From positions 32,050 through 52,049 of the forward strand of contig JAKCEW010000001.1 in the NCBI GenBank assembly GCA_023539445.1: DNA of 20,000 bases, in the 5' to 3' direction. The stretch's first letter is position 1. Every line of letters starts with the position of its first letter. Shown here one piece after another: positions 4,747 through 17,790 of this stretch. The notes beneath the pieces were generated by a model. That model saw only the letters and a program-made list of their open reading frames with translations, was not told where the DNA came from and did no database searches. The position numbers and the translations under genes were made by a program. This DNA comes from Candidatus Terraquivivens yellowstonensis (lineage in GTDB: Archaea > Thermoproteota > Nitrososphaeria_A > Caldarchaeales > Wolframiiraptoraceae).

Positions 4747-5877
4747 ATGAAATACTCTGCAGAATTTGAGGATGTTGTAAGAGCCGCGGAAGAGTTTGTA
4801 AATACTAGAACATTAGAGCCTGTAAAAAGCCAAATTCAGCATGCTAGGCTTTACGTGAGCGCTTTTAGGAGCTTAGATGTGTATAGACCCGTAATGGGTT
4901 TAATCCAGAATATTATGGGAACTGGTGAGCTGAAGGGTTGCGAGCAAGATATTAAAGTAATTCTTAGGGGACTTACCTTGCTGTATTCTGCAAGATACCA
5001 TCAAGTGTATCAAGACCATAGAATTTTTCCGTTACTTCATCAATATGTTCAAGCCCTAAAACTCGTTGAGGATGGGCTAGCCTCTGCAAAGGATTATTGT
5101 ACGGTCTTAAAAAACATCCATGAAAATTTTGTAAGCGCAGTCGAGCAAATCACGCTAGGGAATGGCGTATATGTAGTTAATTGGAAGAACGTCCCAGAAT
5201 CTCATTTCACACTTTACCAAAAAGTCGGATTGAAGATTGCCAGGTTGATTGCTAGCGAGCTCATAGGCCTTTACGTCGTTAAGGTTAGGGGTGAGGCGCC
5301 GCTACATTATCATCATTTCCTCGATGAACATCATTTTTTGCCAGAATATATTGAAGGGTTACATTATCTTGACGGTAAAGTATGCAAGACCACACAAACC
5401 GATATTCTCTACATAAAGAGAGGCCAAGTACACGGTTTTAAGAATAAAGGGGCAAACGAAGCGTCATTCGTGTTCATATGTGGTTCTAAGGAAACCGGCC
5501 CATGGGATTTTGTCCAAGATATAGAACTAGTTGATAAAGAATTTCCCGATGTTGGTTCTGATAATATTAATGATATCGGGGGGAGAGACCTATATAATGT
5601 CTTAGAAAAAGTTAGGAACTTTGAGCAAACTTTCCACGAAAGGCTCTCACCGAGCTACATGCGTCTATTCCAAGACGTGGTTAAGGTTTGCGTGGAATAC
5701 GTGCCGCCCACTCAAGACAAAGAGTTGATATGCTTTGTTGTGGAGGGTCACGGCATGGTTGAGATTGGTGGCAAGAACCATGACATAGGACCAGGAGATG
5801 CCTTCTTGCTTCTTTCCCACACTAAAGCAAAAATCTCAAGCCCATCCATGATACTCTATCAGTTTGGATATGAATGA
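4747..5877 (+). CDS. Uncharacterised protein with a helical N-terminal domain and two cupin-like domains
   Basis: First cupin contains GEAPLHYHHFLDEHHF...DILYIKRGQVHGFKNKG. Second cupin contains VVEGHGMVEIGGKNHDIGPGDAFLLLSHT. ATG at 4747 directly follows the TTG used in the track. Confidence 0.7.
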   Translation: MKYSAEFEDVVRAAEEFVNTRTLEPVKSQIQHARLYVSAFRSLDVYRPVMGLIQNIMGTGELKGCEQDIKVILRGLTLLYSARYHQVYQDHRIFPLLHQYVQALKLVEDGLASAKDYCTVLKNIHENFVSAVEQITLGNGVYVVNWKNVPESHFTLYQKVGLKIARLIASELIGLYVVKVRGEAPLHYHHFLDEHHFLPEYIEGLHYLDGKVCKTTQTDILYIKRGQVHGFKNKGANEASFVFICGSKETGPWDFVQDIELVDKEFPDVGSDNINDIGGRDLYNVLEKVRNFEQTFHERLSPSYMRLFQDVVKVCVEYVPPTQDKELICFVVEGHGMVEIGGKNHDIGPGDAFLLLSHTKAKISSPSMILYQFGYE

Positions 5878-5938
5878 AAGTGCTTTTTATTCACCCAAAG
5901 GATAACTTTTAAATATGGTCAATTTTTATTGTTAACAT

Positions 5939-6288: not shown

Positions 6289-7281
6289 TTGATAACAGGG
6301 GGCAGATGGTCTTTTGTGTCAATTAACCGATCCGGTTCATGGTTCCAAACTAATTCTGACGTAAAAAATCTCAGAGTTTATGATAAAATTCTAAAACTCA
6401 TCGGTAATACGCCCCTTTGTAAGCTTGAAAAAGTGCCCGCGAAACATTGCATAAAGGACAGCGTTAAGATTTACGCTAAACTTGAGTTTTTTAATCCAGG
6501 GGGCTCCATCAAGGATAGGGCTGCCCTTAGCATCATCTTGAGCGCCATAAAGAGTGGAGCGCTAACACCTGACAAAACAATACTTGATGCCACTTCCGGT
6601 AATATGGGAGTATCTTATTCGATGATTGCTGCGGTCCTCGGTTACAGATGCAAGATGCTGGTTCCGGCGAATACCAATGCTAAGAAGGTTGCTCTCATGA
6701 AAGCCTATGGAGCTGAAGTTTTGTATACGAATCCCGTGGATGGATTAGATGGAGCAATTAAAAAAGCCCGCGAGCTATATGAGCAAGATCCTAATGCATA
6801 CTTTTATGCGAACCAATACGACAACGAAGCAAACTGGATAGCACACTACATGACGACGGGGCCTGAGGTGATCAAACAAACTAAGGGAAGATTGACGCAT
6901 TTTATCGCCGGCGTCGGTACGTCTGGAACACTCATGGGAGCCGGTACGAAGTTAAAGGAGTTCAACCCAAATATAAAACTCGTAGAGGTCCAACCAGATT
7001 CACGTTTTCACAAGATCGAGGGGTTAAAACACATGGATACAAGCATTAGGCCGAAGATATACAATGAGAGCCTTAGCGATATGCGTATAAACGTATCCAC
7101 AAACGAGGCTTATGAGATGGTTAAAGAGCTTGCAAGGACTGAAGGGTTACTCGTCGGTATATCGTCCGGTGCCGTGCTTGCCGCTACCTTAAAAGTAGCT
7201 AGAGAGTTAAAGGAGGGGTTGTTGGTAGTTATCTTTCCGGATGGGGGAGAGAGGTACGTTGAAGAATGTTTCTGGGGATAG
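6289..7281 (+). CDS. Cysteine synthase-like PLP enzyme (CysK/CysM family)
   Basis: LIGNTPLCKLEKV, catalytic Lys in NPGGSIKDRAALSII, SGNMGVSYSM, GVGTSGTLMG, VGISSGAVLAA and IFPDGGERY. The true start may lie slightly downstream of the TTG. Confidence 0.93.
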   Translation: MITGGRWSFVSINRSGSWFQTNSDVKNLRVYDKILKLIGNTPLCKLEKVPAKHCIKDSVKIYAKLEFFNPGGSIKDRAALSIILSAIKSGALTPDKTILDATSGNMGVSYSMIAAVLGYRCKMLVPANTNAKKVALMKAYGAEVLYTNPVDGLDGAIKKARELYEQDPNAYFYANQYDNEANWIAHYMTTGPEVIKQTKGRLTHFIAGVGTSGTLMGAGTKLKEFNPNIKLVEVQPDSRFHKIEGLKHMDTSIRPKIYNESLSDMRINVSTNEAYEMVKELARTEGLLVGISSGAVLAATLKVARELKEGLLVVIFPDGGERYVEECFWG

Positions 7282-7311
7282 AAGTTCCAAACCTGACACA
7301 TATCTTAGCGC

Positions 7312-7794
7312 ATGTTCACACGACTTAGGCTTAAGATGGTTATATACTACTTTGGTCTCTTCGTTAAAGAATTGACGCTCATAATAAGCAAAACCAGTCT
7401 GGATGAAGTTATCAAACATGCTTTAGAGACCTATCCCGAAGAATGTTGTGGGCTTCTAGTAGGGAAAAAGGAAGGTGAGAAGAAGGTTGTTATTAAGGTT
7501 GTAAGGAGTAAAAACGTTTACGTGGGGGATAGAAGTAAGAGATACATGATTGATGCATTAGATATATATAATGCGGAAAAGGATGCAGAAAAACATGGGT
7601 TAATGCTTATCGGTGTGTACCACTCACATCCCAATTACCTTGCAAAACCGTCGGCCTACGATGCAGAAGCCGCTTGGTCCTCCATAAGCTATCTAATAGT
7701 TTCCATACGTGATAAGAGGTTTGATGAAGTAACCGCATGGGTTTTTGATAAGAAAAATGAAGAATTTCTTAAGGAAGACATAATAGTTGTTTGA
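7312..7794 (+). CDS. JAMM/MPN+ (Mov34/Rpn11-like) zinc metallopeptidase
   Basis: Complete JAMM motif: PEECCGLLVG (Glu) and HSHPNYLAKPSAYD (HxHx7Sx2D). Confidence 0.9.
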   Translation: MFTRLRLKMVIYYFGLFVKELTLIISKTSLDEVIKHALETYPEECCGLLVGKKEGEKKVVIKVVRSKNVYVGDRSKRYMIDALDIYNAEKDAEKHGLMLIGVYHSHPNYLAKPSAYDAEAAWSSISYLIVSIRDKRFDEVTAWVFDKKNEEFLKEDIIVV

Positions 7795-7882
7795 GTCTTT
7801 TCCATAACCCTTCTCTATTAGATTTTTCACCGTTGAAAACTATGGAAAACTTATTTTTATCTCCAAATCTTATAATAGCCTG

Positions 7883-9373
7883 ATGAGTGGCATACCGATT
7901 TCGCTTGGCTTCAACGCCATGCGCATTATTCTTTCGGGTTCGCAGCCAAGGGCATTACTGAAGAAAAGTTTGGAGAAATGCAGTAAATGCGGTAAGAGAC
8001 CAATAGACATGTTTTTTGATGAATGCCTTGGGATTAAGCAAAAGAAGTGCGTCACGTGTACATCAATCGTTTCTGCGCTTAAGTTCTTTACATTTATCAC
8101 CTTGAAGGCACTGAATACTAACCAAGAGGCATTGGTCAAAGCTTTGAGCGTATCATACTGGAGGAAGGGACTGACTTCAACAATAAAGGGTCTGGCCTGG
8201 TTTGGTGTAACGAAACCTTTTGTCACGGGTGCGCCGCTCTTTGTTGTCTGGAACTTTACGAATAGATGCAACCTCAGATGCAAGCATTGTTATCAAAACG
8301 CCAGTTCAAGCTTACCGGCAGAACTTACAACAAACGAGGCACTTCGTGTTGTTAAGGAACTCTCGGATGCAGACGTTACTTCTATTGCATTTTCAGGAGG
8401 GGAGCCGCTCGTCAGGCAGGATTTCTTCGAAGTCGCAGGGAGTGCGAGAGATAATGGCATGTATGTAACCGTTGCCTCAAACGGCACACTCATAACAAGG
8501 GATGTTGCCAAAAAGCTTGCAAAAACCGTTCATTATGCGGAAATAAGCCTAGACGGCATAAACCCAAGGACGCATGACGAGTTTAGGGGAATTCCTGGTA
8601 GCTGGGATAGGGCGGTTTCTGCAATTAAATATTTAGTGGAAGAGGGCGTTGCTGTGGGTGTTGCCACAACTGTAACCAAACATAACATATCAGAGATACA
8701 AAAAATGGTTGACTTTGTCGAGGGGCTCGGAGCAGATTATTTCATATGCTTCAATTTTATACCGACAGGCAGGGCTACAAAAATCCTAGAAGACGACCCT
8801 ACACCACAGGAAAGAGAAGAGATCTTGAAGTACTTGTATAAGAGGCTGGTTTTCAATATGCTTCAGAATAAAAAGTTGAAAATCTTCACGACGGCGCCCC
8901 AGTTTGCTAGGGTCGGACTCGAGATGAAGGAAAAAATCATGGAGGAAATTTGTACAATCAACTTAACAGCTCCATGTGTTGAGCCCGTAGTTCCTACGAC
9001 TCATTATGCAAACATTCCAGGCATAACACCGGAAGTCGCCGAATTCATTGGTGGTTGCGGCGCGGGCAGAGTTTATGCGGCGATAAGCCCTGAAGGCGAC
9101 GTTCAACCATGTGTCTTTATGCCCATAAAACTTGGCAATCTAAGACATGAAAAATTCGAGGAAATATGGCTCAATTCGAGCGTTCTTAACGAGCTTAGAG
9201 ATAGGAAAAAGCTGAAAGGCGGATGTGGAACCTGTGCATATAAGTTCATTTGCGGAGGCTGTAGGGCCAGGGCCTACGGATATTTCGGAGACTACTTGAT
9301 GCCGGATCCGGGTTGTATTAGGAGAGTTTATGAAAAACCGATCCATACACTACAGCTCCAAATGAGGCTTTAA
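7883..9373 (+). CDS. Radical SAM/SPASM-domain protein with an extra N-terminal Cys-rich region
   Basis: Radical SAM motif CNLRCKHC. SPASM-type cysteines CGAGRVYAAISPEGDVQPC...CGTCAYKFICGGCRARAY...DPGC. N-terminal CSKCG...CLG...CVTC. Confidence 0.92.
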   Translation: MSGIPISLGFNAMRIILSGSQPRALLKKSLEKCSKCGKRPIDMFFDECLGIKQKKCVTCTSIVSALKFFTFITLKALNTNQEALVKALSVSYWRKGLTSTIKGLAWFGVTKPFVTGAPLFVVWNFTNRCNLRCKHCYQNASSSLPAELTTNEALRVVKELSDADVTSIAFSGGEPLVRQDFFEVAGSARDNGMYVTVASNGTLITRDVAKKLAKTVHYAEISLDGINPRTHDEFRGIPGSWDRAVSAIKYLVEEGVAVGVATTVTKHNISEIQKMVDFVEGLGADYFICFNFIPTGRATKILEDDPTPQEREEILKYLYKRLVFNMLQNKKLKIFTTAPQFARVGLEMKEKIMEEICTINLTAPCVEPVVPTTHYANIPGITPEVAEFIGGCGAGRVYAAISPEGDVQPCVFMPIKLGNLRHEKFEEIWLNSSVLNELRDRKKLKGGCGTCAYKFICGGCRARAYGYFGDYLMPDPGCIRRVYEKPIHTLQLQMRL

Positions 9374-10883: not shown

Positions 10884-12050
10884 ATGTTTAAACGTACCCG
10901 TTTGGGGCGTAGGGACGTGACCGATAGAAAGATTCGAATAAATCAACCCGTAATCGACGAGACTGAGATAGAGGAAGTTTCTGAGGTCCTAAGAACGGGC
11001 ATGCTTACCACATGGCACGGTAGCGGTAATAAGGTCAGCGAATTTGAAAAAATGTTCGCATCATATATAGGTGTTGAGTACGCAATTGCTGTGAATTCTG
11101 GAACAGCAGCCCTCCACACTGCTCTCGCGGCATGCGGTATAGGACATGGTGATGAGGTCATAGTACCTGCAATGACTTTTGTGGCCACGGCAAACGTTGT
11201 GCTCATCCAAGGTGCTAAGCCTGTATTCGTGGACGTAGACCCTGTAACGCTCTGTATGGATCCTGAAAAGTTCCAAAATGCTATAACAGATAACACGAAG
11301 GCGGTAATACCCGTGCACGTTTACGGATGCCCTGCCGAGATGGATGCCATAATGGATATCGCTGAAGATAAGGGGATAGTCGTTATCGAGGATGCCGCTC
11401 AGGCGCATGGAGCACTCTATAAAGGTAGAAAAGCTGGTAGCATTGGCCATATGGGCTGCTTTAGCTTCTTCGCCAGCAAGAACATAACGACTGGTGAGGG
11501 GGGAATCATAACCACCAATGATGCTGAATACGCTAGGAAGTGCAGGCTCTTTAGAACGCATGGCCAAGAAGAAGCACATATGGCTGTGATGCCGGGACTA
11601 AATTATAGGATGACAGAGTTCGCGGCTGCTATCGGTCTTGTACAACTTTCGAAACTTGATAGGTTAAATGCCATTAGAGCAAGGAATGCGGAAATCTTAG
11701 GAAGTTATCTCAAAGGCATACCCAACGTCGTCACTCCGACCTTTCCTTCTTACGTTAAACCCTCATACTACGTTTACACAATAAGGGTTAAGGGCGGATC
11801 TAAAAAGTCAAGAGATGCACTACAGAAGTATCTCATGGAAAACGGTATTGAGGCGACAGTTTATTGGCCAAATCCGGTCCACTTACATCCGCTCTACATG
11901 GGACTTTATGGTTACCAGAGGGGCTTACTGCCCGTATCCGAGGAAGCTTCGGATGAAGTGCTTTCCTTACCGGTACATCCTAAAGTTAGCACCGATGAGT
12001 TACATTACATCGCTGAAAAAATCGGAGAATTCTTCGTAAGCGACTTTTAG
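10884..12050 (+). CDS. DegT/DnrJ/EryC1/StrS-family (sugar) aminotransferase
   Basis: NSGTAALHTALAACGIGHGDEVIVPAMTFVATANVV, IEDAAQAHGALYKGRKAG, catalytic Lys in FSFFASKNITTGEGG, and GLNYRMTEFAAAIGL. Confidence 0.94.
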   Translation: MFKRTRLGRRDVTDRKIRINQPVIDETEIEEVSEVLRTGMLTTWHGSGNKVSEFEKMFASYIGVEYAIAVNSGTAALHTALAACGIGHGDEVIVPAMTFVATANVVLIQGAKPVFVDVDPVTLCMDPEKFQNAITDNTKAVIPVHVYGCPAEMDAIMDIAEDKGIVVIEDAAQAHGALYKGRKAGSIGHMGCFSFFASKNITTGEGGIITTNDAEYARKCRLFRTHGQEEAHMAVMPGLNYRMTEFAAAIGLVQLSKLDRLNAIRARNAEILGSYLKGIPNVVTPTFPSYVKPSYYVYTIRVKGGSKKSRDALQKYLMENGIEATVYWPNPVHLHPLYMGLYGYQRGLLPVSEEASDEVLSLPVHPKVSTDELHYIAEKIGEFFVSDF

Positions 12051-12448
12051 CGTCGCTCCACGATTATTTTATCACCCTCTATCTTTATCCAATCGCCACT
12101 CTTAAATTTGCTAGTATCAACGCAATCGACGGTAGGTATGTCACTTATTATTGCACCGACAGCAACTATAGGTTCGCATCTCTGATTTATTATCGCATTT
12201 GGCGCCACGCCCTTTTTCTTCAACCTGTAGATTATGTAGGAGCCGACGGTCGAGCCCTTTCCATGCGGAAAGACCAGTACCTTTCCAGCTATGCTCTTTC
12301 CTTCCAGCTCATGTCCCTTTTCCTTGATTATTCCCGTATCAGGGTCAACGCCCCCATAGAAGGATATCGGTTGCGATGAAACTAACGCTTCACCTTCGGC
12401 CCTTCCCCCTTTTATGACCCTACCCCTCAGTTCTAAAATAACACTCAT
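12047..12448 (-). CDS. AcnX swivel (small) subunit, DUF126: probable phosphomevalonate dehydratase small subunit. The track start at 12601 is an over-extension.
   Basis: MSVILELRGRVIKGGRAEGEALVSSQPISFYGGVDPDTGIIKEKGHELEGKSIAGKVLVFPHGKGSTVGSYIIYRL. ATG at 12448-12446 overlaps the upstream stop as ATGA. Confidence 0.9.
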   Translation of the reverse strand: MSVILELRGRVIKGGRAEGEALVSSQPISFYGGVDPDTGIIKEKGHELEGKSIAGKVLVFPHGKGSTVGSYIIYRLKKKGVAPNAIINQRCEPIVAVGAIISDIPTVDCVDTSKFKSGDWIKIEGDKIIVERR

Positions 12449-13626
12449 TTGGTCGCTTCCCTGAGGCACTCTTCTGTCGAAAGTAATCTCACGCACAAAT
12501 TGTTTAAGTTTCTTGAATACCATGCCCCTTTGGCCGAGTTCGTAGCGACGGCCGTTACCCCTAAATCCTTTACAGGCGCGACTATCGGGCAGGTATCGCA
12601 TACAACCGTACCTCCAGCAGCTTCTATAACCTGCGTTATGCCCAGCTTATCCGCCTCCAGCTTGACACTCTTCGAGCAGCATAACCAAAGCTTTTTTCTA
12701 ACATTTTTCCCGGCTAAGAATGATGCGATCCTTTTAAGTTCCATGAGTGAAAGATGGGGACAGCCAAGGAATATTAAGTCCGGATCCACTTCACTGGCAT
12801 ACTCTTCCTTGACACTCTTTATATCAGATTCCGTAACAGTGAGTCTCTCCATGGATCTATCTACATACTCTCCAGCTTCCGGTGTTATACCGTCCACGTG
12901 AAACATGGGCACACCACCGACGCTGGCCAACGCCGCGCCCAATGCCTTTAATTCGTCTGGCTCAGCATGAAGTATACCCCTGAAAAGAGGTATACCGTCG
13001 CCGACTAATCTTCCTACGATCATGCCAAGGCAAGCAAACTCAAACTCCCCATTTGGTTGTGGTACCCTAACCTCCACGGTTGGTTGACGGTTCTCTTTGA
13101 GATGTAGACCATAGAAGGGCGTCCTACCAGTTATCGCGGCCGCTAAAGCGCTTATTCCGCTCTCTCTATTTGTCTTAGCACCTATGACTGAATTTGCATA
13201 AACCACCGCCGAGCTCTCACTCCACGCGATGTGGTCGCCCATTCTAGGCTCGTTGCCAACAAGATATGGTGTACATGTACAAGTTATCTTGACGCCCATC
13301 CTTCTATACACATCTATCACCCTTAGCTGATTCTCCGCGAACTCCCTATCAATGCCCATTAAGCTCCATTTGTCCAAATCCATGCCCGCAGGATTAAGTG
13401 TCGTCTGCACGAGAACTCTGCCATCGGATGCAAGTTCTTCCAAAAACTCTAGTCCATCCTCACCCACGTTAGCATAGGATACACCGGATATGTGAGCGCT
13501 CGTAATAGGGACTAACTTCTCAGCGTCGTAAATTTTTCCAAGCGCCACAAGTATTTCCATAGCTTTTTGCGCGGCATATCCGAGCTCGCCGACAAGCATG
13601 CGCTCCTCCTCTTTTGAAAGGTACAT
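12445..13626 (-). CDS. AcnX catalytic (large) subunit, DUF521: probable phosphomevalonate dehydratase large subunit
   Basis: Aconitase-X features ITCTCTPYLVGNEPRMGDHIAWSESSAVVYANSVIGAKTNRE, LWLCCSKSVK and VVCDTCPIVAP. Followed by the DUF126 partner. Confidence 0.93.
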   Translation of the reverse strand: MYLSKEEERMLVGELGYAAQKAMEILVALGKIYDAEKLVPITSAHISGVSYANVGEDGLEFLEELASDGRVLVQTTLNPAGMDLDKWSLMGIDREFAENQLRVIDVYRRMGVKITCTCTPYLVGNEPRMGDHIAWSESSAVVYANSVIGAKTNRESGISALAAAITGRTPFYGLHLKENRQPTVEVRVPQPNGEFEFACLGMIVGRLVGDGIPLFRGILHAEPDELKALGAALASVGGVPMFHVDGITPEAGEYVDRSMERLTVTESDIKSVKEEYASEVDPDLIFLGCPHLSLMELKRIASFLAGKNVRKKLWLCCSKSVKLEADKLGITQVIEAAGGTVVCDTCPIVAPVKDLGVTAVATNSAKGAWYSRNLNNLCVRLLSTEECLREATK

Positions 13627-13659
13627 TTTGATCGCACCAACGGATTATGCGACTTTTAG

Positions 13660-14958
13660 TTACTTTATGTAGTCCTCAATCTTTATACTTTCTTCTCCTG
13701 GTATCTTGGCTTTTTTAAAGAGCTTCGGGTCGGCGTCTAAAGGCAATGTTGCATCTATTCCGGCTTTGCATGTCTTTCGGGTGTACTGGTCGGCAGATGG
13801 GTCCAGAGAGGAGCCATACTCGTTAGGTTTGAGCACTAGGCATTTGTCCATCTGCACCCTTGTCGCCAAGACCCATTCCAGCTCAGCTGGGTCATCGATG
13901 TTTATATCCTCGTCAACTACGAGGACGTGTTTTAGACTACCGTGTCCCTTAAATGCCGCCTCTATGGCCTTTTTTCCGTCATCCGCATGCCTTTTCCTTA
14001 TTTTTACGACGGCGTTAAACCACTTACAACCACCAGGCGTCAATCTAACATCCAAACATTCGCAAACTTTTCCAACCTCCTTGTATATCGCTACCTCTCT
14101 CGGTGTGCCCATTAGGATTTTATGCTCGCTACCTGCCAGCAATACTGCTTGGAATATTGGGTCACGTCTCATAGTTACACACTCTATCTCGATTACCCTC
14201 TGCTTTCTCACAACATCGTATGTGCCCGTTATGTCAATTATTGGACCCTCGTCTGCCCATTCATCCGTTACGACACCTTCCATCACAACCTCACAGTCTG
14301 CGGGCACGAGTAGGTCATTCGTCACACATTTCGTATATCTCATCTTCCTTAACGAATTTGCTATATCTAACTCGCTAACGCCTATCTTCCAAGTAACGGC
14401 CGCAGCTATCATGAAGGCAGGATGGTTCCCGAAAGTTATCGCAACGTTTCTATTGCCCCTACGTATAAATTCATCGAGATGTCTCGGGAGTATTCTTGCA
14501 ACGACCCTGTTCTTATCTATGAGCATTAATCTGTGGAAGCTAGCATTAAAACCATACTCCTTGTCATGAGCGATAATTATGCTGGCGGTAGTATAAGGCC
14601 CACCATCATACTGGCCGAAAAGAAGGAATGGAAACTTTCTCAGGTCAGGGTTTCGATCGATTACTTGCTGACATGGTGCATCTTCAACGATTTCACCCTT
14701 GCTTGGGTTTTCTATGGCATCATTCAGCTTTCTGAGTATATCGTCCTCGCTCACACCTAATGCCTTTGCTAAAATCCTCCTACTACCGCAAATGTTCGCC
14801 GCTAGCTTGAACCCCTCACATTCTTTGATCTTGTGAAAAAGCACGGGCCTTCCGTCGAGCTTCTTCATTATTGCAGCTGCCTCAAATTTCGTCGAGACCG
14901 GTTTTACGATGTTGATGAGCTCTCCTTCCTTCTCAAGCTCGCTCAAGAAATCCCTCAT
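13660..14958 (-). CDS. UbiD-family decarboxylase: probable anhydromevalonate phosphate decarboxylase
   Basis: MRDFLSELEKEGELINIVKPVSTKFEAAAIMKKLDGRPVLFHKIK, NASFHRLMLIDKNRVVARILPRHLDEF and ITFGNHPAFMIAAAV. ATG at 14958-14956 overlaps the UbiX stop as ATGA. The track uses 14967. Confidence 0.92.
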   Translation of the reverse strand: MRDFLSELEKEGELINIVKPVSTKFEAAAIMKKLDGRPVLFHKIKECEGFKLAANICGSRRILAKALGVSEDDILRKLNDAIENPSKGEIVEDAPCQQVIDRNPDLRKFPFLLFGQYDGGPYTTASIIIAHDKEYGFNASFHRLMLIDKNRVVARILPRHLDEFIRRGNRNVAITFGNHPAFMIAAAVTWKIGVSELDIANSLRKMRYTKCVTNDLLVPADCEVVMEGVVTDEWADEGPIIDITGTYDVVRKQRVIEIECVTMRRDPIFQAVLLAGSEHKILMGTPREVAIYKEVGKVCECLDVRLTPGGCKWFNAVVKIRKRHADDGKKAIEAAFKGHGSLKHVLVVDEDINIDDPAELEWVLATRVQMDKCLVLKPNEYGSSLDPSADQYTRKTCKAGIDATLPLDADPKLFKKAKIPGEESIKIEDYIK

Positions 14959-15503
14959 TCTCCCCACCTTTTGTATAAATTGTGCTCAATTCCGAGGATT
15001 TCCAAAATCCTTCCGACTATAAAGTCTATAAGGTCTTGAATGGTCTTTGGTGAGTGGTAGAAAGTTAAAACCGGCGGTAACACGACAGCTCCTGCCCTAG
15101 TTGCCTTGAGCATATTGATGATGTATGGTTCGGCCAAAGGTGTTTCGCGGGGTACTAGAATAAGTTTCCTTCTCTGCTTAAGAGAGACGAGTGCCGCTCT
15201 TACTATCAAGTTTTCTTCCATACCGTTGGCAATTGCGGCAAGTGTCTTCATGGAGCACGGCACGACTACCATGCCATCAACGGGAAAAGAGCCGCTTGAA
15301 AGCGGAGCCTCGAATTCGTCCTCCCGGAAAATTCTGTCTGCATATAACTTTATCTTTTCTAGGTTTGCTTCGGCCCGGACGAGGGCCTCGCCGTTCTTGG
15401 AAAGAATCAAGTAAACTTGATGTTTACCTGCTTTCAAGACTTCCAACAATCTCTCAGCTATTGGTGCACCTGAGGCTCCCGTTATCGCTACAACAACCCT
15501 CAT
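14955..15503 (-). CDS. ubiX: UbiX-family flavin prenyltransferase (prenyl-FMN synthase)
   Basis: MRVVVAITGASGAPIAERLLEVLK, VVVPCSMKTLAAIANGMEENLIVRAALVSLKQRRKLILVPRETPL and AGAVVLPPVLTFYHSPKTIQDLIDFIVGRILE. Confidence 0.95.
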   Translation of the reverse strand: MRVVVAITGASGAPIAERLLEVLKAGKHQVYLILSKNGEALVRAEANLEKIKLYADRIFREDEFEAPLSSGSFPVDGMVVVPCSMKTLAAIANGMEENLIVRAALVSLKQRRKLILVPRETPLAEPYIINMLKATRAGAVVLPPVLTFYHSPKTIQDLIDFIVGRILEILGIEHNLYKRWGE

Positions 15504-15546: not shown

Positions 15547-17016
15547 TCATGTCGTGAAATCTGACGACAGAATTGTCTCTCCTTTTTTCGTCAAAACGTA
15601 AACTTTCTTTTTTCTTTCTGATGGGCTTCCTTCGTTTACAACTGTTATCAAGCCAGCGGCCAAAAGTTCCTGCAGATGCTGATACATTGACGGTAACGTG
15701 ATTGCCAGACCGAATTTTTGTGTAAGAGTTTTCCATAAAAGATACCCATGACTTGGATGTTTTTGTAAAATTTTTAGTATTAAGCGCTTTGTCCTTCCTA
15801 GTCGACTATCTAACGAGGAGGCGAGCATGAATGCTATAGGAGTCTCCGCGGCCGAGTGCTTTATTAAACTCTTGACTGCTGCTGGATCCTTTAAACCTGC
15901 ACCCGTTATTATGCACACAACTTTGTCGGACCTTTCTATTATTCCGTCTTCTAAGGCAACTCTAAGAGCCGCTATTGTTGAGGCTGCGGCTGGCTCAGCA
16001 AATATGCCCTCACATTTGGCTAAAAGTCTTGTGGCTTCGAGTATTTTATTCTCGGATATTGCTAGAGCATAACCATTCGATTCCCTTAAAGCTTTCAAGC
16101 AAAGTTCCCCTAACATAGGTTGCCTGACTGCTATGTCATGGAACGTCATCCCAAAATCTTTAGGTTTGGCAGGTTTATCAAGATTCTTTCTGAATGCTTC
16201 AACTATAGGCGAGCAACTTTTGGCCTGAACACCTAGAAGTCTTGAATGTACACCGTCAATAAGCCCAACATAGCTTAATTCCCTCAGAGCTTTCCATATC
16301 ATCGATAAATGTCCACCCTCGCCGACGGGCACGACAAAGAACTCGGGAGGGGACCAATGAAGTTGCTCGCAGACCTCATATCCAGTAGTTTTTATTCCTT
16401 CAAGAAAAAACGGGTTTGTCACAGATACTGTGTACTCTCCTTCGCATGGATTCTCCAAAAACTTAAGGGCGTCGTCATATGTCTTAACAAAGTTTATTTC
16501 AGCACCACAAACGACGGCCTGATAAAGCTTACCTAATTCGACGCCTAGTGTTGTATAAATCCTGCAGCTTAAACCGGCCTTTGCTGCATATGCAGCAACC
16601 GAGGCACCCAAGTTTCCCCTGCTCACGCACTTAAGTGCGCGATAACCCATACTCTTTGCCTCTGTTGCCTCGATAGCAACTCCTCTGTCCAAGAAAGATC
16701 CAGTAGGATTTACCGTTTCGTTTTTCAAATACAAGTTCTTGATCCCAAGCTCCTCTCCCAGCCTTTCAGCTTTCTGGAGGAAAGTACCACCCTCACCCAA
16801 AGATATAATAAAGTCGTCTTTCATGAGGGGCATGAGAAACGAGTACTTCCACATACTCGAAGGGGTTTTAGCAAGTTCCTCCCTGCTTATGATAGATGAA
16901 AGTTGATCATAATCGTACTCGATAAGTGCTTGGCCGCCACAACTTGGACACCGAATTGGGTTTTTTCTGTTATCAAAGTGTTTGCCGCATCTTATGCATG
17001 AAAGCCTGAAGCCCAT
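15547..17016 (-). CDS. Threonine-synthase-like fold-type II PLP enzyme homologue (catalytic Lys missing) fused to a C-terminal PadR-like winged helix
   Basis: N-terminal zinc ribbon CIRCG...CPSCGG and TS-like core SLGEGGTFL...NETVNPTGSFLDRG...EGIFAEPAAASTIAALRVAL...TGAGLKDP. C-terminal wHTH LILKILQKHPSHGYLLWKTLTQKFGLAITLPSMYQHLQELLAAGLITVVNEGS...KKVYVLTKKGE. Confidence 0.88.
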   Translation of the reverse strand: MGFRLSCIRCGKHFDNRKNPIRCPSCGGQALIEYDYDQLSSIISREELAKTPSSMWKYSFLMPLMKDDFIISLGEGGTFLQKAERLGEELGIKNLYLKNETVNPTGSFLDRGVAIEATEAKSMGYRALKCVSRGNLGASVAAYAAKAGLSCRIYTTLGVELGKLYQAVVCGAEINFVKTYDDALKFLENPCEGEYTVSVTNPFFLEGIKTTGYEVCEQLHWSPPEFFVVPVGEGGHLSMIWKALRELSYVGLIDGVHSRLLGVQAKSCSPIVEAFRKNLDKPAKPKDFGMTFHDIAVRQPMLGELCLKALRESNGYALAISENKILEATRLLAKCEGIFAEPAAASTIAALRVALEDGIIERSDKVVCIITGAGLKDPAAVKSLIKHSAAETPIAFMLASSLDSRLGRTKRLILKILQKHPSHGYLLWKTLTQKFGLAITLPSMYQHLQELLAAGLITVVNEGSPSERKKKVYVLTKKGETILSSDFTT

Positions 17017-17039
17017 ACGGCCTATATGTAGGTTGAAGG

Positions 17040-17048
17040 TTATATATT
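17040..17048. promoter_or_regulatory. Shared bidirectional TATA element between the divergent genes
   Basis: TTATATATT lies 24-32 nt from the minus-strand ATG (17016) and 23-31 nt from the plus-strand ATG (17071), so it is essentially central in the 54-bp spacer. Confidence 0.55.
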
Positions 17049-17070
17049 TTGTTTTTGAAGGAACTTTGGC

Positions 17071-17790
17071 ATGCAGCGCCGTAGCGTACTCATAGCAAAG
17101 TTAGCGGTCTTTACGTCGTTAGTCGCCGTTGCCACGATGGTCCTATCTATTTACGTACCAGCCACTAGAGGTTACTTCAATTTGGGTGAAACTATGATAT
17201 ACTTCACGGCGCTCACGATGGGGCCCGGAATAGCAGCATTTGCAGGCGGCGTAGGTTCCATGATAGCCGACTTAGCACTAGGTTACTACTATTATGCCCC
17301 TGCAACATTACTCATAAAGGCAGCCGAAGGAGCACTTGTCGGATACCTTATCAAGAAAGCTCCGAAGAAGGGTGGATGGCAGCTTGCAGTGGCGTCTTAC
17401 GCGCTCGTTGCTGGATATTTTGTGCTCATACTTCTAATAGGCATTATGCTGTTTGTTGGTGAGGTTGAAGTTTCTATATTCCCGATTGGTGAAGGCGCGC
17501 AATCGTTCATCTTCACGATCGCACCCTATTCGTGGATCGGTTTGGCGGCCGCAGCTATAGCCACGCCAGTCTACTTTGTTGTTAAAGAAAAAGGCTACGA
17601 AGGTTGGTTAATACTTTCTCTGCTCCTTGGCGGACTTATCATGGTCTCAGGATACTTTGTATATGAGCAGTTCTTTTTGAACGTCGCTGCTTTGGCCGAG
17701 ATACCGGTGAACCTTGGACAGTCGATAATAGGAACAGCAGTCGCGATACCACTCTACAAGGCGTTCAAAAAGCTGTATCGAGTTGGCTAA
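17071..17790 (+). CDS. ECF-type transporter substrate-capture (S) component-like membrane protein
   Basis: Multiple TM segments. N-terminal GYFNLGETMIYFTALTMGPGIAAFAGGVGSMIADLALGYYYYAPATLLIKAAEGALVGYLIKK is characteristic of archaeal ECF S components. Confidence 0.8.
   Translation: MQRRSVLIAKLAVFTSLVAVATMVLSIYVPATRGYFNLGETMIYFTALTMGPGIAAFAGGVGSMIADLALGYYYYAPATLLIKAAEGALVGYLIKKAPKKGGWQLAVASYALVAGYFVLILLIGIMLFVGEVEVSIFPIGEGAQSFIFTIAPYSWIGLAAAAIATPVYFVVKEKGYEGWLILSLLLGGLIMVSGYFVYEQFFLNVAALAEIPVNLGQSIIGTAVAIPLYKAFKKLYRVG

Follow-up and report, generated by a model that had tools for sequence, protein, structure and literature searches.

What does a protein do that is built like a threonine synthase (ThrC) but lacks the lysine to which this enzyme binds its cofactor? 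The question is raised by a gene on the minus strand of a 20,000-nucleotide stretch of DNA from Candidatus Terraquivivens yellowstonensis (contig JAKCEW010000001.1, positions 32,050 to 52,049; hereafter the window), where an open reading frame (ORF) at 15547..17016 encodes a protein of 489 aa. An initial annotation of the window had read the product as a threonine-synthase-like pseudoenzyme that is retained for binding or sensing and in which leucine replaces the lysine forming the Schiff base with pyridoxal 5'-phosphate (PLP). The loss of the lysine holds, and it marks a whole clade that has an intact fold and is under purifying selection. The core of the pseudoenzyme idea, a ThrC fold that no longer catalyses and is kept for binding or sensing, is thus supported. 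The idea was nevertheless incomplete, as it missed a fused DNA-binding domain of the PadR type, a divergently oriented gene for an S component of an energy-coupling factor (ECF) transporter, and an operator-like element between the two genes. Rather than a free-standing pseudoenzyme, the protein probably represents a family of one-component transcription factors that act on a divergent gene pair, and vitamin B6 is the ligand towards which we lean.

The replacement can be read directly from the minus strand, on which the codons AAT CCT ACT GGA TCT TTC TTG GAC AGA GGA encode NPTGSFLDRG, with TTG (16690..16692) specifying Leu109. In phmmer comparisons with solved threonine synthases, those of M. 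tuberculosis (2D1F), A. aeolicus (2ZSJ), B. subtilis (6CGQ) and T. thermophilus (1UIM) were matched with E values from 3e-57 to 1e-47. Leu109 aligned with the Schiff-base lysine, that is, with K61 of 1UIM, the established PLP lysine of T. thermophilus ThrC. Further deviations that had been pointed out in the initial annotation were found as described: the protein reads EGGTFL versus EGxTPL, SRGNL versus STGNT, and GEGGH versus GNAGN. Equally, the features said to be kept are in place, namely the four cysteines of a zinc ribbon and the C-terminal motif, present as TGAGLKDP, and the three other PLP proteins of the window indeed retain their lysine (CysM-like, NPGGSIKDR; IlvE-like, VKSLNY; DegT-like, SFFASK).

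Four parts can be distinguished in the protein, all encoded on the minus strand. A four-cysteine zinc ribbon (residues 5-30, with C7, C10, C23 and C26; 16927..17004) gives weak Pfam zinc-ribbon matches, and its cysteine columns are kept in the family wherever the N-terminus is present. The ribbon is common to the lysine-bearing archaeal ThrC relatives, whose alignments start at residue 3-6. It is followed by a domain with the ThrC fold (fold-type II PLP; residues 55-386; 15859..16854), the proposed ligand sensor, in which Pfam recognizes PALP over residues 71-372 (4e-60, 204 bits). A flexible linker of unconserved sequence (residues 387-405; 15802..15858) leads to a C-terminal PadR-type winged helix-turn-helix (wHTH) domain (residues 406-486; 15559..15801), where PF03551 matches residues 413-483 with an E value of 7e-11 and 42.4 bits versus a cutoff of 27. 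The conserved pattern of this part is G.TK..IL...GY.iWk...YQHL.EL. An AlphaFold model computed from a family alignment of 42 sequences had a mean predicted local distance difference test (pLDDT) score of 86.8, with high confidence for the ThrC-like body and for the wHTH (pLDDT ~90) and a disordered linker between them (pLDDT <50). The elements of the wHTH follow each other in the order helix-helix-helix-strand-strand-helix. The best Foldseek matches to this model were the threonine synthases 2D1F, 6CGQ, 2ZSJ and 1V7C, with target-normalised template modelling (TM) scores of 0.85-0.88, in line with the earlier statement that the fold is kept. Because a PadR DNA-binding domain is fused to an enzyme-derived domain, the order of zinc ribbon, enzyme-derived domain, linker and wHTH corresponds to that of a one-component transcription factor.

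The loss of the lysine is a property of the family. Homologues were collected from a set of 5.8 billion proteins, and the best 120 were taken. All of them possess both the PALP and the PadR domain, and none has lysine at the position in question, which is occupied by I (53), V (33) or L (28) and otherwise by M, T or S; the search for orthologues with lysine at this site, which the initial annotation had named as a way to overturn its claim, thus returned none. A deeper HMMER search, run exhaustively over 1.84 billion cluster representatives (50% identity), separated two groups: lysine occurs in 0 of 62 PadR-fused representatives, which carry I, V, L or M, versus all 76 relatives without PadR (about 410 aa). 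In a rough neighbour-joining tree, the lysine-less fused proteins also stood apart from the lysine-bearing ones. The only lysines that are invariant in the fused family, K98, K209, K376 and K410, are also present in canonical ThrC or lie within the PadR part. Members of the family were seen in Archaea alone, that is, in Thermoproteota (Aigarchaeota, Bathyarchaeia, Nitrososphaeria) and Asgard archaea (Thorarchaeota). Judging from these alignments, the loss defines a clade under purifying selection and is due neither to chance nor to a sequencing error. The latter had been considered unlikely from the start, and orthologues at 55-83% identity likewise carry leucine.

Two further groups of relatives emerged from the same searches. 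The lysine site is occupied by R (6), K (2) or S (1) in a small, separate PadR-fused clade (P0156, P0158, P0168, P0176, P0179, P0196, P0201, P0218 and P0252; locus L209), which may stand for an earlier step in the same transition from enzyme to regulator or for a parallel one. At L209 (1.9 kb), the sole locus of this clade that was examined, the composite DNA motif described below was not found. Another clade, comprising nine of the 76 unfused relatives (P0173, P0175, P0177, P0205, P0208, P0223, P0229, P0234 and P0237), consists of proteins of about 615 aa that keep the catalytic lysine and carry a C-terminal LeuA allosteric domain (LeuA_dimer, checked by Pfam for P0173). Presumably, these ThrC-LeuA fusions are allosterically regulated enzymes.

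Which parts of the active site have been kept was determined by mapping residues through the 1UIM alignment and counting them in the fused clade. F60 of ThrC corresponds to F108 (F or Y in all aligned fused members), N87 to N135 (N in 53/62, D in the rest), G187-x-A189-G190 to G232-x-G234-G235 (the first two glycines nearly invariant, the third position G, A or S) and T317 to T371 (T in 61/62). These positions, which in T. thermophilus ThrC serve in ring stacking (F60), contact to O3' (N87), the phosphate loop (G187-G190) and contact to the ring N1 (T317), are conserved at about 85-100%. Lost are K61, which is L109 here and I, V, L or M in the fused clade, and R160, which is F204 here and F, L, Y or I in the clade; N154 and S155 are S198 and V199, at positions that vary. 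R160, N154 and S155 bind the phosphate of the substrate, O-phosphohomoserine, in the T. thermophilus enzyme. By the alignment, the residues that contact PLP are thus kept, and the Schiff-base lysine and the arginine for the substrate phosphate are gone. The motifs NPTGSFxDRG, GNLGAS, PFFLEGxKT, EGIFAEPAAA and VCxITGxGLKDP are near-invariant at an overall identity of about 40%, and a working pocket is therefore favoured over a decaying one. As far as its residues tell, the 489-aa protein is not a threonine synthase, since the defining lysine and the arginine for the substrate phosphate are both absent, and very probably it is not an enzyme at all.

The gene that lies head to head with that of the regulator (17071..17790, plus strand), its proposed target, encodes an ECF-type S-component-like membrane protein of 239 aa that matches PF07155 with 89.3 bits versus a cutoff of 26.7. 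Its sole sequence match in the PDB is HmpT (4HZU_S, E value 1.3e-7); a search of NCBIfam gave weak matches to TIGR04002 and FolT and no specific name. Of 15 fusion loci, 12 have a homologue of the S component close to the gene of the regulator. A scan of a genome collection with the pattern NPTG[SA]FxDRG yielded 80 loci, six of them fusions and 74 ordinary thrC loci that served as negative control, and a PF07155 gene within 5 kb occurred in 0 of these 74. The head-to-head arrangement is present in an Aigarchaeota/Nitrososphaerota metagenome-assembled genome (L001), in Thorarchaeota (L003/L004, L006, L144, L155, L188), in Candidatus Pelearchaeum (L005), in Bathyarchaeia (L007), in Nitrososphaerota (L008) and in Nitrosopumilales (L009); the pairing with PF07155 thus spans four archaeal lineages. 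At L002 the S-component gene is located upstream on the same strand as the regulator, and at L011 it is 2.9 kb off.

PF07155/COG4720 holds PdxU and PdxU2/HmpT, the only described S components of prokaryotic ECF transporters for B6, which together with one ABC binding protein, P5PA, make up the described prokaryotic B6 transporters (PMC9997740). The substrate of HmpT has been identified as pyridoxamine (PMC4860826). We compared six conserved residues of the HmpT pocket with 11 archaeal S-component partners, and four of the six, E41, Y120, N140 and Q143, are identical in 10-11 of them; an aromatic residue at the position of W76 is conserved as well. The S components of the window, L001 and L007-L009 share an insertion of about 55 aa, and the versions of Thorarchaeota and Pelearchaeum are without it. 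Genes for EcfT or EcfA were absent from the window.

Several neighbours of the S component, or of the place where it would be expected, were also recorded. In Thorarchaeota a conserved protein of 426 aa (L003 3879-5159, also in L144 and L155) is encoded just downstream of the S component on the same strand; it has no Pfam or NCBIfam match and may be an operon partner of the S component. L211, which has no S component, encodes a membrane protein (5225-5878) that very faintly resembles PAP2 phosphatases, and at L002, where the S component is displaced, a class I aminotransferase and a HAD phosphatase are found (7536-9298). Pfam and NCBIfam scans of these proteins returned nothing informative, and a link to B6 salvage is speculative.

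The regulator and S-component genes are separated by only 54 bp (17017..17070), which contain two distinct features. The box ATATATAA, which reads TTATATAT on the opposite strand (17040..17047), is exactly 23 nt away from either start codon and is kept in 11 homologous loci. We read it as a putative TATA box shared by two leaderless transcripts, because a spacing of 23 nt to each start fits an archaeal TATA box of such transcripts. Between this box and the ATG of the regulator lies the near-perfect palindrome CCTACATATAGG (17021..17032), the proposed PadR operator, which is the sole match in the window at a tolerance of up to one mismatch. In the window, the two features combine on the regulator strand into ATATATAA-CC-TT-C-A-A-CCTACATATAGG (17047..17019), and a conserved 29-bp composite of the form ATATATAA-N2-TT-N-A-R-CCTAYATATAGG is located directly upstream of the regulator start codon in L001 and L003-L009. 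A position weight matrix (PWM) gave scores of 35-45 at 12 composite-bearing loci (and the duplicate L004). Outside these loci, the highest score in the 1.5 Mb of DNA that was retrieved was 35.5, reached on an AT-rich contig devoid of long ORFs, and the second highest was 27. The palindrome CCTAYATATAGG is positioned 4-40 nt upstream of the start codon at 12 loci.

The element also occurs apart from the genes with which it was defined. A metagenome scan for TTNARCCTAYATATAGG, the right-hand part of the composite, returned at least 120 loci, most of them chance matches or an unrelated recurrent element. Among the matches listed, the full composite was found only in L144, L155, L188 and L197. The first three are regulator/S-component pairs, and in contig L197 the composite (score 42.2) is located between pdxS (SOR_SNZ, 5e-24) and another ECF-S-like gene. 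In addition, two PadR genes that stand alone (Pfam 1e-19 and 8e-26; L142 445-912 and L146 near 7723-8106) are immediately preceded by CCTATATATAGG. They are located on GC-rich contigs (56% and 63% GC, respectively), and in L146 the palindrome overlaps a promoter of the TTGACA type. The occurrence at standalone PadR genes supports the reading of the palindrome as a probable PadR operator and suggests that it may be an operator type of wider use. The recurrent element of that scan, GTTCAACCTATATATAGGGGG(C/T)TATAA, was seen in 26 metagenome loci among the matches listed (for example L086, L125, L137, L159 and L180); it is followed by A/C-rich sequence without an obvious ORF and was matched only through the search pattern it contains.

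On this basis, we somewhat favour the view that the 489-aa protein is a vitamin-B6-sensing regulator that has the transporter gene as its target and is an archaeal functional analogue of PdxR. Vitamin B6 is suggested as the ligand because the PLP-enzyme fold keeps the contacts to the cofactor and loses those to the substrate, because the paired S component belongs to the PdxU/HmpT family and partly keeps the HmpT pocket, and because the composite element adjoins pdxS in L197. The role of a B6 regulator is open in Archaea, as the MocR family is absent there (PMC5320631). How the palindrome would be bound, by what kind of dimer, with which sign of regulation and in response to which ligand, we infer as follows. 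The ThrC-derived domain would act as ligand sensor and bind a B6 vitamer, either PLP or an unphosphorylated form, reversibly and non-covalently. The occupancy of the pocket would follow the free B6 pool and alter the affinity for DNA. Dimerization through the ThrC-like domains, as in ThrC, would set two PadR winged helices on the palindrome CCTACATATAGG. There, the bound dimer would occlude the DNA that separates the TATA box from the regulator's own gene, resulting in autoregulation, and would abut the TATA/BRE region of the divergent transporter gene, thereby controlling the S component. The broader proposal is that this is the first B6-responsive transcription factor family of Archaea, independent of MocR/PdxR, which reads the free B6 pool non-covalently and employs PadR at a bidirectional module to control B6 uptake and, in some lineages, pdxS; for this proposal we regard the chances as even.

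A number of observations weigh against a B6-sensing regulator of this kind. Three of the 15 fusion loci (L010, L210 and L211) lack an S-component neighbour, and the composite motif is absent from L002, L011 and L209. In all archaeal S components, H84 of HmpT is replaced by K and Q87 by E, and specificities within PF07155 are mixed or uncertain, HmpT itself having first been predicted to be a carrier of hydroxymethylpyrimidine. The link to pdxS rests on a single contig of 1.5 kb, L197, and three other archaeal pdxS loci, in organisms for which the presence of the regulator is not established, have no strong motif (none in L207 and L208, a weak resemblance in L206). The palindrome contains a perfect TATA sequence and in L210 stands alone at -43..-32 from the ATG, so that its role might be that of a promoter element instead of an operator. 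Finally, the phosphate loop of the window's own clade carries a glutamate (GEGGH) at its first position, where E is found in 6 of 120 homologues and N, T or S are usual. This glutamate would disfavour a phosphate group, and the clade of the window may not bind PLP itself.

Some of these points fit a transcription factor that responds to a ligand other than B6, such as O-phosphohomoserine, homoserine, threonine, hydroxymethylpyrimidine or another thiamine precursor, or some other micronutrient carried by the S component. The sensor derives from an enzyme whose substrate is O-phosphohomoserine, PF07155 takes its name from riboflavin S components, and the early prediction for HmpT, the two exchanges in the S-component pocket and the glutamate of the phosphate loop would all be accommodated. 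However, it is the arginine for the substrate phosphate that has turned into F, L, Y or I, and S198/V199 have taken the place of N154/S155, while the cofactor contacts are kept. Moreover, the neighbourhoods examined contain no recurrent threonine or thiamine genes, and the element at L197 adjoins pdxS. We thus regard a non-B6 ligand as rather unlikely, if worth keeping in mind. The ThrC-like domain might also bind no small molecule and merely provide dimerization or stability to PadR, with regulation exerted through protein level or partners. The loss of the catalytic lysine and of the substrate residues would agree with this, and ThrC enzymes are generally known to be dimeric. Yet the pocket motifs NPTGSFxDRG, GN, GxGG, EPA and TGxGLKDP are nearly invariant at about 40% identity, which would not be expected of a scaffold and renders this explanation improbable.

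That the protein is still a PLP enzyme, be it threonine synthase or another, which works through a relocated lysine or with non-covalently held PLP and to which PadR adds feedback regulation, appears very improbable. In its favour, the protein scores 188.3 against TIGR00260 (thrC) versus a cutoff of 167.1 and, with 300.7 versus 303, falls just below the cutoff of PRK08197 in NCBIfam. NCBI and JGI records label the family threonine synthase, and members of the related PALP-PadR subgroup (P0168, P0201, P0156) carry K or R at this position. However, transaldimination and proton transfer in fold-type II enzymes depend on the lysine, and it is present in none of the 62 representatives and 120 homologues. 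The invariant lysines that might replace it are those shared with canonical ThrC or located in the PadR part, and the arginine for the substrate phosphate is gone. The unusual residue, taken by itself, could also point to a sequencing or assembly artefact or to a decaying pseudogene. This possibility is practically nil: the frame is open over 489 codons, a near-identical protein exists in another assembly, and the residues of the homologues, leucine in all orthologues mentioned above, together with the preserved synteny and the strong sequence conservation rule it out.

Beyond the gene pair, the window holds further genes with a connection to the regulator locus or to PLP. A UbiX-like flavoprotein, a UbiD-family decarboxylase and the large and small subunits of AcnX are encoded at 12047-15503 on the minus strand, downstream of the regulator gene after a gap of 43 bp, and an equivalent set is present in L001 (9517-12973). 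The ORF at 12047-12601 overlaps that of the large AcnX subunit, so that its real start is probably further in. This set matches the archaeal-type mevalonate pathway. These genes were considered as part of the regulator system and rejected, as their adjacency is common only to the window and its close relative L001. At 6289-7794 of the window, a CysM-like PALP gene that keeps the lysine (NPGGSIKDR) is followed by a gene for a JAB/MPN protease, a pairing that is reminiscent of cysteine synthesis dependent on a sulfur carrier protein.

In a literature search that covered few subscription papers, we found no published description of the PALP-PadR architecture, of a regulator resembling threonine synthase or of an archaeal B6 regulator. 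The family is apparently undescribed and widespread in Archaea. We know of no regulator of vitamin B6 homeostasis in Archaea. The gene pair offers a concrete candidate for both a B6 sensor and a B6 transporter in Archaea, the latter being a class that is poorly known in prokaryotes (PMC9997740). If the proposal is correct, a PLP-enzyme fold would have been recruited as cofactor sensor for a second time and independently, with the loss of the covalent lysine as the enabling step. In addition, metabolic reconstructions of uncultured archaea may wrongly credit them with threonine synthase, because the 489-aa protein passes the TIGR00260 cutoff and carries that label. The 29-bp TATA/operator module, conserved across phyla, also provides a compact system for bidirectional archaeal promoters.

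How does the protein relate to systems that are already known? With respect to the enzymes, it resembles the archaeal zinc-ribbon threonine synthases (PRK08197/TIGR00260) in its zinc ribbon, its fold, about 40% identity and the motifs NPTGSFxDRG, EGxKT, EPA and TGxGLKDP; those enzymes, however, have lysine in 76/76 cases, usually arginine at the R160 position, and no PadR domain. The 'threonine synthase' profile PRK05638 has the same three-part architecture and covers residues 5-484 including the wHTH, but with a score of 268 versus a cutoff of 421 the 489-aa protein stays below membership. The PALP-PadR subgroup with R, K or S at the lysine site (P0156, P0168, P0201) shares the architecture as well, but forms its own clade and has no hydrophobic residue at this position.

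On the side of DNA binding, proteins of the PadR family (PadR, LmrR, archaeal Phr) act as dimers on palindromic operators and regulate their own genes. The family described here carries a genuine PadR wHTH and is predicted to act in the same manner, probably as a dimer at a palindromic operator and on its own gene. Classical PadR proteins are 100-180 aa long and consist of an N-terminal wHTH and a helical domain for dimerization or ligand binding, whereas here the wHTH is located C-terminal to an enzyme-derived domain of 380 aa. The S component of the window is like PdxU and PdxU2 (HmpT) in belonging to PF07155 and in conserving E41, Y120, N140, Q143 and the aromatic position W76, but unlike HmpT in having K for H84, E for Q87 and the insertion of about 55 aa.

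A close parallel in overall design is found in Bacteria, where PdxR is encoded divergently to its targets and controls pdxST, pdxK and pdxU; regulators of the MocR type are absent from Archaea (PMC5320631). Like PdxR as a MocR-type regulator, the 489-aa protein would be a one-component regulator in which a sensor with a PLP-enzyme fold is fused to a winged helix. The regulator gene likewise diverges from its proposed target across a shared intergenic region, and a PF07155 B6 transporter (and, at one locus, pdxS) is part of the proposed regulon. The building blocks differ, however: MocR proteins combine an N-terminal GntR wHTH with a fold-type I aminotransferase domain that keeps the PLP lysine, whereas in the protein of the window a PadR wHTH forms the C-terminal part, the ThrC domain is of fold-type II and without the lysine, and a zinc ribbon is present; the family has been seen only in Archaea. 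From its sequence, it is thus an analogue of MocR/PdxR and not a member of this family.

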